Source: Schmidtea nova
Lineage: Eukaryota
Reading direction: 5' to 3'
DNA length: 64,000 nt
Assembly (NCBI GenBank): GCA_044892505.1
Contig: CM097882.1
Coordinates: forward strand, 203,670,001-203,734,000
Part shown: piece by piece, positions 45,283 to 51,200 of the stretch
Position numbering within the stretch: the stretch's first letter is position 1
Layout: every line of letters begins with the position of its first letter
Translations under genes and position numbers: made by a program
The notes under the pieces: generated by a model
The model's input: the letters and a program-made list of their open reading frames with translations, nothing else
What the model was told of the DNA's origin: nothing
Databases searched by the model: none

Positions 45283-48200
45283 GTAATAGACAAAATTGCG
45301 GAACGCGAAACAAGGACCGGTATAATACCAATCCTAACAGAAGCAGAAAGAAAAGCAGCAAAGAAGGCAAAAGTAGCAGCTAAATTAGCGCAACAAAAGG
45401 TCAGCACAGAGCCGATCCTATCAGAAGAAGAAAGAAAAACAGCGAAAAAGACAAGACCAGGAAATAAAGCAGAGCAACAAAAGAATAAACTAGCAGAGAT
45501 CAGCGATAATTCGAGTAATAAAGAGAATCAAGAAGAGACCCCAGTGGATCTAGAAGTACAAAACGAAGTAGAAACGATAGACAGTGAACTAGTCAGTGGA
45601 AACAGAACAAGAAGCGAATCAAGAGATAACGAAACAGGGAGTAGTGAAGAAGAAGAGTTGAATCCAGAAACAAGTGGTGAAATAGAAGCAAAGAAAACTA
45701 GTACAGTATTCCAAGACAGTGGAATCGGGATGAGTGAACACAGAGAGGATCTGAGAGAAAAATTCAAGGGTGAACCATTCAATGGAGACGCCAGTAGATT
45801 GGACACGTTTCTGAAGGAATTTGGCATATTTGTGGATATATGCGGATGGAGTGCAGAAACGTTAGCAAATCGAATCCCGCTATACTTGAAAGATAGCGCA
45901 TTGGATCTGTATATTGAAAAGAGATCGGGAAGTAGTCCACCCAGAACGTGGGAAGCGATCAAGGAGTTCTTCCAACAGACGTTTGGGATAAACAAAGTGC
46001 TGAATGAAGCATTCGATGAGTTTTCAGCAAGAAAACAGAGGAGAAATGAGTCAAATGCAGTGTACGCAAGTGAATTAAGAAAGTTGGCAAAACTGGCATT
46101 CAACAGAGGAAGCCCAGTAGACGAGGAATTGATGACAGCGTTATTCGTACGAGGTCTCAGGAGACCTGACATCAGAGCACAAGTGGGATGCAAAGGATGT
46201 AAAACAGTAGATGAAGCGTTGGAAGCAGCCAACCTATTCGAATTGCATATGGCAATGAAAGACATGAGAATTACGGCGGTAATGGGAAAAACGACAGAAG
46301 ATGAAGAACAAGGAAAAAGAAACATGAATCAGAGTATTCCCCATTCACAGAGATTGTTCAAAGAACCGCCAGCGAGGAAGAATAACGGATATATCACGGT
46401 GAACACGAATGGAGGAAATAGTTACAATGACAGGCAGAATAGGCAATGTCAGACGTGTGGGAAAAACGGACATTGGCAACAAGAGTGTTTTCAGAATGTA
46501 GCCTGTAAACTGTGTGGACAAAAGGGTCACTCAGAGAATCGATGTTATGGGAAAACGTGTTACACATGTGGAAAATCGGGACACATGTCAAGAGAGTGTA
46601 ATCAACAGAGAAGTTGGTCAAACAGTGGAAATAGACAGAATTACGGAAATCGACCAAGCTATGGGAATCAGGGTCAACAACGGAATAATCCAAATAGCAG
46701 TGCAAATGAAGCCAGTATGAAAGAAGCCAAGTTGAGACAGGAGGTATCCAGATTACACGAAATAATCGAAAGTATGGCAAAGGGAAGCCAGCAAGCTGCT
46801 CAACCAAAGATAAACATGATCCAGTTAATAGAAGCTGAAACCGAAAGAGAAAATAGAGAAAGTCAACAGAAACATAATCAAGAATGGGCCAGAATACGAC
46901 GAGAGGAAGAACAAGTCAGACAGCAACGGTTACAACAGTTAAAAAAGGGAAATCCAAGGATCAACATGATGCGAGCAATGATGGAAGAGAAGCAGCAAGA
47001 TGAGTCGGACGAGTTAGAAGTTAAAGAAAAAAGAAACGAAGAGCAGAAACAAGAAGAAGTAAATCAGGAAGCAGAAACTGCAGAGCAGAATCAAAAGGAT
47101 GAAGAAGAGAAAAAAGAAACAGAAACGGAAATGGAAACAGAAAAAGAAGTGAATCAAGAAGAAGAAGTGAGAATCAAACAAAGAGGAATGTTGGTGATCA
47201 TGCCGAATGATCACGTGTTTCGATTCAAATACGATGTAAAAGAAGAAGTAGGAAGATTGTTCAATAAAGTAAATGAGATGATTCCGGGAGTGACGAAGCT
47301 GCCCAGAGAAGCATTCCTACAAACAGAGGATTTACCAGAAGTAAAGTTAAAGATGACTGATATATGGGAAGATATGGGAGTAACAGAGACGAAAATAAAC
47401 GTGATGATCATTAGAGAGGTGGAACCGGAGAAAATCCCACCACCAGTGAAACATCAAACTCGGATCAGTCGAATATTCAAGGGAAAAATAAGACGAAGAC
47501 GGTTGGAAGAAATAGATGAATTGGAGAAGAGAATGGGAAAAGCCGAAATAACGGGAGACGAGAGTGAAATAACACAGGAAGTTAGCAAAAACGAAGCGAG
47601 ACCAACCGCGCATATTGGGATGCTGAGACACCCAAGACAAGAATTGTCAGATGAGGAAGACGACAGCGAAGTTAGCAGTCTGGCAGGAGACATGCTAAAG
47701 GAACCGGAAAACGAGGATAAAAAGATGGAAGTAGTCGAGACGATGGAAACAGTGTCGGTAAAGGAAGACGAAATTCAGAAGCTGATGGATAACGCGTTGG
47801 AAGTAATCCATAACGAGGAGTTTATCGACAAGAAACGATACCGAAAGTGTATACGAGCAGTATGGCAGATGAAGTATAAAAAGTGGTTACAAGAAAGAGA
47901 AGTGAGAGTAATACAAGAGTTCATGGAGAAGCTATTGAAAGAACCACTCAACGAATATATAATACAGATATGGATAAACGAGTGTTCACCGAGAATCTGG
48001 ATAAAGAACCCAATGACGGATGGAATTTACAGATGGGTTGAGGACAGATTGGGAAGCTCGTACAAAGACAAATTCATATATTCGGAAAACGGATTGGTGA
48101 AAAAGGAAACGCATATGATAGATACAGGCATCTGGCCAGGAGAAATAACGACGTTATCTATATGCAACACCAAGAAGGAAGAGAACTTACAAGGAATCGT

Positions 48201-51200
48201 CAAAGAAGCGAATACGTGTTACGAGATGAGAATAAAACCTCAGTTGATAGAGGCAAAAGAAAGAATATTGGCAGAGAATTTGAATACGATGATAGAACAG
48301 ATCATCCAACAAATCAAGAAACATCGAAAGGAATTGACGAAAAGCGAGTATGAGAATTTGAAGCAGTGTATCGAGAACATACGAGATACAAGTCAAACGA
48401 GACATTCAAATTTCAAAACGGATAAGTTAATCGCAAAGATGGGAAAAGAAATGTTTAAACGAGGAGAGGTATCAGATCTGAAGATTACCGTGAGCTTACC
48501 GAACGAGGAGACAAGACAAATTGAGGTAATACCAGATAGTAAAGTGGGAGAAATAGTAGAGGTCATCAATGAGACGATATTACAACGAGAACGGGAAGAC
48601 GAATTTGAGGATGACATAGCGATAAAATACAAAGAATATCTACTGAACGAACGTGATGAAAGACGAGCGTATAAAATCGGCATATGGGATAATTATCAGA
48701 CAATACATGTCATCAGAATGGATGATGTGCAAAGAGCAACACCAAGGGATGAGGAAAGGAAAAAGAAACGACAAGAGGACGTTATGCGCAAGTTGAGGCA
48801 GATAGTAGAAATCTATAGGAACTGGCAAATAAAGCCAGAATGGGAGACAATATTGGGAGAATTGGATCTTAACAGACGACGATTGACGCCAGTAGAGAAG
48901 CAATGGGATAACAAAGAGAAATGTTGGAAAGTGAAAAGAGGCGTGTATGAAGAAGATCCGGAAGGAGAAGACAGATATGAACGGAATACGAAACGGATAT
49001 GTATGGTAACAAGGAGGTTACTACCAACGGACTTAGACGGACCAGAAACTGCAGTAATATGGGCAGAATTGGAGAAACAGAAAACGGGTGAATTAATCGA
49101 GCTGTTGAGAGGAAATACTCGGGGAAAAAGACAAACAATAAAAGGCTTAGCACAATTCATAATCGCAAATGGAGAAGACATAACGAACTTGAGAAAAGTA
49201 GCTAAAGCGATAGCAGAATACAAGAGAGTTAATGAGTGGTGTCCGGAGCAACTAGACAATGTAACAAAGAAGTGGAGAAACAAAGAATTTGCGGAAGAAA
49301 CGCCACAAAAAATACATTTGAGGATAATGTATCCGAATCAGAGAAAAGAAGAGTTTTGGGTGATGCTAACAGAAAAAGTGAAAAGTGTTAAAGAGAAACT
49401 GATGTACGAACTACCATTCCACCTGCAACATCAAGGACGATCGTTGGATAATAATTTGGAAATCTGGCTGACACCAGTGCAATTGGATCTAATGAATACG
49501 TTAACAGTGGCACAAATAGTGGGTCAACCACTGAAGTTTAAAGAGGAAAAGAAACCGAAAGGAAGCATGAGTACACCAAGTCCAATGAAGTCAACAATGA
49601 CCCCAGGAACAAGTTCGGGACAAGCAAGGACAACACCAATCAAAACGAGAGAGAGAACACCGCCAGAAGCGTATGACGTAGACGAAATATTAACCGACAG
49701 TGATGAAGCGATAGAAGAATTAACAAAGTTGACTCAAAAACCAACGGCGAATATTTTTGACAGAATAATAGAGATGCCAATAACGTCACCAGCAGAAATC
49801 GACGATCAAGGAGTGGAACAGGAGGTAGTCATAGAAATGGTAAACGATTCAGAAGACGAGCAAGAACAACCCCAGTTTACTCAAGAAATGGAAAGATGGT
49901 TGGAACAGCGAGCGAACGAAGGAAGAGATGTTACAGAAGAAACGGGAAGAGCAGCGAGATTCGTAGAAACCGGAACTGGAATGGAAAAACGACCAAGAGG
50001 AAGACCAAAGATAGATCCAGCAACAGCAGTCCCAAAGACAAGGGAAGAAAGGAGACAAGAGCAATGGGAGATTTGCTTGAAGAAATTAGACAAAATCGCA
50101 GAAATCAGAGGAAAAGAGGAGAATCAAGTCTGCCAAGGAGAGGAATGGCTCACCAAAACGATAATGGATGTGTTAGCGATAATCGACCCGGAATTAAAGA
50201 ATTTATGGCGGATAAACGAACCCAGTACAAAGGCAAAGATGCTACACAATGCAATAGCACCGATTATGCCAGAATTGATAAAAGCGAAAACAAAATCGAA
50301 TCATCTAGATTGGCAAGGAACCACGATGTTAATAAAAAAGCTACTTAATGGAGCAGAAACAGACAGCAAATATCTAGTGGCAATCTCGTATACAATATAC
50401 AATTTGCTAACGCTAAGCCGAGGAAGCCCGAAGTCAAGTCCGATGGGAAGACATATTAAAAATACGGCGATGATTATCGAGAAAGAAATTGAACCATATA
50501 TCCTCAGGAAAGGAGGATGGGAAAAGTTCATAAAAGAGAACCAGACAAAAGAGGGTTCAAACGTGATGAGAAAGAAACTTGAAGGAGTATTGAGAGAAAT
50601 GGAGAATAGACAAACGATGCAAGGAAACGGAAGATCGACGTTGAATTTAAACTCGATAATCATGATGATGTTAGTATGGTTATTAAGCACAGAAGGTGTA
50701 ACAACGTTCGAGGTATTTGATTGTGATCAAATGAAATTGGGAGAAAAGTACTCATTGAGAGGTACGGAGCAATGCAAAGATGCAACTCCAGTAGAATTGA
50801 GAGAGATTAAAAAGGAACAATGGTACCACGTGTATCAAGAAGCAGAACTAATAAAGACAATGGTGAATGAATGCAAAGTGCAGAAGACGAGATTCGCATT
50901 CTATTGTGGGAGAGGACATTATTCAGCAATTGTCATGCCAGGAACGGAAAGAGAACCAATCGTGTTGCAAGGAGAAGACTGCGAAGCATTGTTTAAACAT
51001 GGAGAAGTGACAACAAGAGATAAAATCAAGATAAAAGGAAAACCAGGAATGATGTTGCAGCAGACGTATTATGTAGCAGGACGAATTACGGGAGGAGAAG
51101 GATATTGTCAAGGAGAAACCTACCCAATATTTGGAGTACCTGCAACCAACTTAGTGGTGATGGACACATATATAGTCGAACTGAAAAGTTACGAAGCATT

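Follow-up and report, generated by a model that had tools for sequence, protein, structure and literature searches.

The question raised by this locus is what fills the long interval between the Gag and envelope (env) regions of a giant planarian retroelement, and what that interval may do for the element. The locus lies in a 64,000-nucleotide stretch of Schmidtea nova DNA (GenBank assembly GCA_044892505.1, contig CM097882.1, positions 203,670,001 to 203,734,000, forward strand; hereafter the window), and the element in question is a Burro-type giant Ty3/gypsy long terminal repeat (LTR) element, assigned by its architecture. Structure modelling predicts that the polyprotein of its first open reading frame (ORF1) contains three ubiquitin-fold domains, UBL1b, UBL2 and UBL3, and likely a fourth, within an array of ubiquitin-like (UBL) segments and helical bundles (Table 1). 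About half of Burro's giant ORF1 was previously without annotation; about 800 of its residues can now be divided into strongly constrained domains of defined extent, with cut sites predicted, and the link of the element to host ubiquitin and cell-death pathways becomes testable domain by domain.

Ubiquitin-fold domains within ORF1

The UBL1, UBL2 and UBL3 segments all lie in frame inside the first open stretch of ORF1, where Pfam places the Gag zinc knuckles upstream of them and a Monjiviricetes-type fusion glycoprotein downstream, while protease, reverse transcriptase (RT), RNase H, integrase and ankyrin repeats continue the same frame past two in-frame stops. The features that define Burro are present: a CCHC-knuckle Gag and the protease-RT-RNase H-integrase order in an ORF1 of about 5,000 amino acids (aa), broken by the two stops in the window copy; an env-like fusion protein (PF24664) in frame between the protease and a BCL-2-like domain, the latter recognised via sister-family alignment; and long LTRs, a total length near 30 kb and accessory RING, MATH/TRAF and ankyrin modules. 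Another natural copy has LTRs of about 3.1 kb and spans about 29 kb. A genome search with a UBL2-UBL3 query, in which 116 of 3,134 candidates were scored (all 94-100% identical), returned open frames of 5,076-5,114 aa in 25 of the 116 copies.

An earlier note on this DNA had proposed three beta-grasp domains between Gag and the Bcl-2-like domain. The proposal holds for UBL3 and very likely for UBL2, and its count was one too few, UBL1b having been overlooked until family F2 was aligned to the window. The models of UBL3 and UBL1b show a mixed sheet grasping one helix and are superposable on ubiquitin-family structures; UBL2 displays the beta-grasp order of elements with support from the predicted local distance difference test (pLDDT), evidence weaker than that for UBL3. 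A single-sequence model (pLDDT 37) yielded no Foldseek match at E ≤ 0.001; a better model, compared by VIA-align, matched integral UBLs. The 50 matches listed in that comparison fell mostly on UBL3 and barely probed UBL2 alone or the helical bundles; among them UBL2 was covered only by poly-ubiquitin rows of 214-215 aligned residues, with no single-domain row. UBL1 is unproven as a beta-grasp domain: its features in the ESM Atlas are favourable, its pLDDT is below 50 and its profile score is not above background.

The window UBL segments gave no ubiquitin-family match in Pfam and nothing in phmmer searches of PDB sequences, word-index homologue searches found nothing, and hidden Markov models built from sister-family UBLs, with or without ubiquitin, failed to single out the UBL segments within ORF1. 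Profiles against the PDB returned a redesigned ubiquitin as the best match for UBL2 (E 0.066), ISG15 for UBL3 (E 1.2 from a two-row profile; a seven-row profile found no UBL) and no UBL match for UBL1. The counterpart of UBL2 in family F4 showed weak FERM_f0 and OTU1_UBXL matches (E 0.011).

No Gly-Gly occurs between aa 377 and 1744 of ORF1, and none of UBL1, UBL1b, UBL2 and UBL3 bears a basic LRGG-like tail. The UBLs are therefore integral domains, neither conjugatable nor cut by deubiquitinases (DUBs) at a ubiquitin tail, in agreement with the earlier view that they are not conjugated; a role as DUB cleavage signals was rejected on the same ground. A sequence alignment to host ubiquitin, poor over the first half of UBL1b, shows most of the buried core retained, while across the four segments in that order the Ile44 position reads Q, Y, K, Q and the Leu8 position P, N, P, P. 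The Leu8-Ile44-Val70 hydrophobic patch, kept in proteasome-shuttle UBLs such as Rad23 and Dsk2, is accordingly missing at its Ile44 and Leu8 positions; the Ile44 patch is the surface bound by proteasome receptors and UBA domains.

Selection on the array was assessed in 30 loci, of which 25 supplied colinear copies; the other five, which contained an indel or a stop or lacked an anchor, were set aside. The ratio of non-synonymous to synonymous polymorphism (pN/pS) was 0.10, 0.06, 0.06 and 0.02 for UBL1, UBL1b, UBL2 and UBL3 against 0.16 for the linker after UBL1, the values for UBL2 and UBL3 (not UBL1 and UBL1b) being biased downward because the loci were ranked on the UBL2-UBL3 query. Shared variants in UBL3 comprised 1 non-synonymous and 14 synonymous changes. 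That the UBLs are a product of chance or an artefact was rejected, as their frames are open and selected in 25 copies and they are kept in a subfamily of the window's family, which retains all four segments at 66-81% identity.

Sister families and related systems

The sister families described here are those returned by ranked genome searches and do not form a census. Each of the four families seen has at least one helix-plus-UBL unit between Gag and Bcl-2, and the UBL count runs from one to three (four with UBL1), so that UBL content differs between families coexisting in one genome. Family F3 (about 3,060-3,080 aa) has one such unit and F2 (about 3,393-3,401 aa) has two, the second UBL of F2 carrying an insertion of about 15 residues before its last strand (L091:5999-6262, L092:6017-6280). 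F4 (about 4,990-5,006 aa) keeps UBL2 and UBL3; in F4, as in P0001, the only match among 1.84 billion representative proteins (33%), the array includes a TRAF-type MATH domain that separates UBL2 from H3-UBL3. At the place of UBL1, F4 has a helical stretch instead. The window's family has no MATH in ORF1 and a separate RING/zf-TRAF/MATH ORF downstream (L096:8608-9900, 3' of the ankyrin ORF and followed by a coiled-coil ORF).

The planarian Burro/GYPSM1 ORF1 was published with one Ubi2/SUMO-like motif (PF11976) between MATH and BCL-2 (PMC6431247), and since F4 has its MATH between UBL2 and UBL3, it is UBL3 that matches this motif in position. Both elements share an ORF1 of about 5,000 aa with Gag, a UBL at the place of the Ubi2/SUMO-like motif, a BCL-2-like domain, an in-frame mononegavirus-like env, protease-RT-RNase H-integrase and ankyrin repeats, together with accessory RING and MATH/TRAF modules and a length of about 29 kb with LTRs. 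They differ in that one motif was published against three to four UBLs in the window's family, of which three follow a helical bundle, and one to three in the sister families; moreover, the TRAF-like ORF of the window's family is downstream, whereas the MATH-less D. tigrina element has an accessory MATH ORF upstream (PMC6431247). Literature searches on Burro or on UBLs in LTR elements turned up no account of multiple UBLs and none of a helix-plus-UBL repeat, and the figures and supplements of Grohme 2018 and Lee 2026 may show more. With the element class, its env position and one of the UBLs already in the literature, the advance is moderate.

In being embedded beta-grasp domains without a conjugation tail, the Burro UBLs resemble the integral (type II) UBLs, of which Rad60 SLD2, the SF3A1 UBL, the BAG1 UBL, parkin, Dsk2, Rad23 and the PI3K ABD were among the matches listed. 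As far as the excerpted accounts of coronavirus nsp3 extend, its Ubl1 and Ubl2 are likewise non-conjugated ubiquitin folds beside an acidic region in a protease-processed, membrane-anchored viral polyprotein; no homology is shown, and the nsp3 domains flank a papain-like protease whereas the Burro UBLs precede a Bcl-2-like domain and env. Pestivirus insertions also place ubiquitin-related sequence within a polyprotein, and the ubiquitin they keep is near-authentic, with an LRGG at which host DUBs can cleave, unlike the Burro UBLs, which have no Gly-Gly.

A different retroelement of the S. nova genome, which we take to be BEL/Pao-like by its Gag and protease motifs, carries a near-authentic ubiquitin ending in LRGG, LRGA or LCGG. 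This ubiquitin sits in frame immediately ahead of the Gag-like region and is preceded by HSP70-like and other host-like fragments (family A: L031-L034, L042, L055, L056, L058; family B: L037-L041, L060). It emerged from a PF11976 genome search in which 150 of 2,223 candidates were scored, most of them in long frames, and 14 loci were read. This ubiquitin could be cleavable by host DUBs and fits the captured-ubiquitin cleavage-signal model; the element carrying it is possibly more novel than the Burro array.

Candidate roles of the array

The reading that we tentatively prefer, at a probability somewhat short of even, is that the array serves as a docking scaffold which is released together with the Bcl-2-like domain by the protease of the element and acts on host signalling. 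The Bcl-2-like domain, the MATH inside the F4 array, the downstream TRAF-like ORF and the upstream RING ORF point towards host cell-death and ubiquitin signalling. Further support comes from the predicted folds, the low pN/pS values, the retention of helix-plus-UBL units across families and the enrichment and conservation of the putative cut-site motif. A second-hand and partial account (PMC13465017) has the Burro1 RING-BIR product protecting stem cells from caspase-mediated death, and such reported support of planarian stem-cell survival adds interest to the gap in ORF1; no BIR domain was detected in the leader RING ORF of the window. Release would begin with cleavage at I-[NG]-M-[MIL] motifs near aa 510, 560 and 778, giving a UBL1 piece of about 220 aa and a piece of about 1,030 aa comprising H1-UBL1b-H2-UBL2-H3-UBL3, an acidic linker and the Bcl-2-like domain. 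The internal signal sequence of env might then stay on the latter and anchor its C terminus in the membrane, in the manner of cellular Bcl-2 proteins, although this is a weak step. The helix-plus-UBL units would contact host proteins of cell-death and ubiquitin signalling by surfaces outside the Ile44 patch and, with the Bcl-2-like, TRAF/MATH and RING products of the element, would keep the expressing cell alive. A broader picture is rather doubtful as a whole: an expandable array of previously undescribed helical-bundle-plus-ubiquitin-fold repeat units, released by protease as one membrane-anchored Bcl-2-like fusion of about 1,000 residues (with a TRAF MATH in some families), which acts as a cell-survival signalling scaffold built by the transposon and varies its number of UBLs, from one to four, in the way that a viral host-range locus evolves.

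The putative cut sites I[NG]M[MIL] number 4 in ORF1 against 0.2 in shuffles (P 0.0005), for a motif picked after seeing the sequence. Two lie after the nucleocapsid, one between UBL1 and H1 and one after integrase, and related motifs precede the protease and lie at the boundary of RNase H and integrase. The last strand of UBL1 had also been considered as a protease site and was rejected, its motif not being kept in the subfamily.

Several observations weigh against the scaffold. The cut sites depend on that choice of motif after inspection of the data, and the hydrophobic segment before env is below the 19-residue hydropathy cut-off, which counts against a membrane anchor. The window's own Bcl-2-like domain has no Pfam match; it aligns with F2 and F4 through a GGW motif, and PF00452 is matched at E 6.5e-4 in F2 and over the cut-off in F3. 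UBL1 is unproven, and the helical bundles H1-H3 have no assigned fold: the H2 profile found no significant match in the PDB, the sole H3 match below E 0.5 was a designed repeat protein, and TFIIS-N, CID, BAG and death folds, which stay candidates, had no Pfam or PDB-profile support. Purifying selection, its values biased for two of the domains as stated, shows a folded and needed protein and not a signalling role. Within the portions of PMC8532177 available, Burro1 is transcribed in the intestine upon PIWI loss, and RNA interference against Burro1 left the smedwi-2 phenotype unchanged, which is neutral at best. A second-hand and partial account (PMC13465017) has the Burro1 RING-BIR product protecting stem cells from caspase-mediated death, and such reported support of planarian stem-cell survival adds interest to the gap in ORF1; no BIR domain was detected in the leader RING ORF of the window.

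The block could instead be an assembly tether: as a very long cytosolic env leader it would bind Gag or RNA of the element itself, keep capsids at membranes that carry env and take the place of a matrix domain. We regard this as unlikely, though it accounts for the position of the block between Gag and the env signal sequence in all four families, and a partner encoded by the element itself would be consistent with the missing host-facing Ile44 patch. The combination of a non-conjugated UBL with an acidic stretch after it (25% D/E, aa 1440-1560) is reminiscent of nsp3, whose Ubl1 binds nucleocapsid according to passages of PMC8769549 and PMC9938351. Against it, a UBL number of one to four and the MATH insertion of F4 are more suggestive of cargo directed at the host than of a core component of assembly, and no nsp3 sequence or fold link appeared among the 50 structural matches listed, mostly of one domain.

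It is improbable that the UBLs are captured, duplicated and drifted domains serving mainly as stable spacers within a 5,000-aa polyprotein or as aids to its folding, with no specific partner. Array identity of 17-37% between families, variable UBL number and the lost ubiquitin binding patch would suit such spacers, and ubiquitin-fold tags do help the expression of fusion proteins; the scarcity of shared non-synonymous variants in UBL3, its 49% identity between F1 and F4 against 31% for its block, and motifs that look surface-exposed, among them P-F-H-L-Q-x-x-G-R-S-L-D, unchanged across all 7 aligned rows, speak for more than a spacer. Most improbable is the earlier note's idea of adaptors or decoys for proteasome receptors, DUBs or the element's RING E3, which the ubiquitin-like fold, the two RING proteins of the element and the capacity of some integral UBLs (e.g. 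those of USP7) to bind E3s or DUBs without Ile44 would allow, and which is weakened by the Ile44 and Leu8 replacements, the lack of a basic LRGG-like tail and the RING ORF being a separate gene.

Architecture and surroundings of the window copy

Table 1. Features of the Burro-type element in the window, with positions counted from its first nucleotide
Feature	Position	Strand	Remarks
Partial 5' LTR	40089..41737	+	Matches 3' portion of the ~3.1-kb LTR in another natural copy
Leader ORF, coiled coil and C-terminal RING	42283..42756	+	zf-C3HC4_3 E 3.3e-9
First open stretch of ORF1 (Gag, UBL array, Bcl-2-like, env ectodomain)	45283..52281	+	2,332 aa; ended by in-frame stop in window copy; zf-CCHC, PF24664
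Gag zinc knuckles	46447..46602	+	zf-CCHC E 2.1e-8
Two I-N-M-[IM] motifs, putative protease sites	46810..46971	+	Like motifs at matching places in F4
UBL1, possible beta-grasp domain	47182..47418	+	ESM Atlas 0.89-0.92; only in window's family and its subfamily
H-I-G-M-L-R, putative protease site between UBL1 and rest of array	47611..47628	+	Aligns with I-N-M-[ML]-R in F4, P0001 and subfamily
Helical bundle H1	47764..47940	+	Three helices, pLDDT 50-69
UBL1b, fourth ubiquitin-like domain	47950..48168	+	Exposed by aligning F2 to window
Helical bundle H2	48172..48459	+	pN/pS 0.05
UBL2, predicted beta-grasp domain	48475..48723	+	Structure model; pN/pS 0.06 (biased downward)
Helical bundle H3	49051..49287	+	Block pLDDT 76-86; kept in F4 and P0001
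UBL3, predicted beta-grasp domain	49309..49521	+	Positional match of published Burro Ubi2/SUMO-like motif
Bcl-2-like domain	50143..50529	+	Assigned through sister families
Short hydrophobic segment, likely internal env signal sequence	50647..50706	+	Directly before env start in all four families
Monjiviricetes-type fusion glycoprotein (env)	50707..52488	+	PF24664 E 5e-54 and 1.2e-8; interrupted by stop at 52279-52281; transmembrane segment from 52399
Remainder of ORF1 (protease, RT, RNase H, integrase, ankyrin repeats)	52282..57108	+	Pfam; second in-frame stop 56161-56163
Ankyrin ORF	57260..60495	+	Truncated at duplication junction
Start of internal tandem duplicate of 48961 onward	60496..64000	+	99.97% over 3,505 bp; second UBL3 copy 60844-61056

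No 3' LTR of the window element was found in the downstream stretches examined, and its downstream end is directly adjoined by a 1.2-kb inverted copy (98.6%; L097:1418-2623, + strand) of part of a Mab-21 family ORF that lies upstream of the element (36681-38337, - strand); together these suggest a local rearrangement. An internal tandem duplication of 11,535 bp repeats 48961-60495 from 60496 at 99.95-99.97% identity, extends 8,031 bp past the window (L096:1-8031) and has microhomology at its junction (shared G|GA(A/C)G); from the sequence it would be either a very recent event or an assembly artefact.

The leader between the RING ORF and ORF1 contains arrays of 19-, 36- and about 90-bp repeats at 43458-43997 and 44275-44780. 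The ankyrin ORF has two hydrophobic stretches and Cys/Trp-patterned repeats which, without a Pfam match, resemble fibronectin-III-type extracellular domains by eye.

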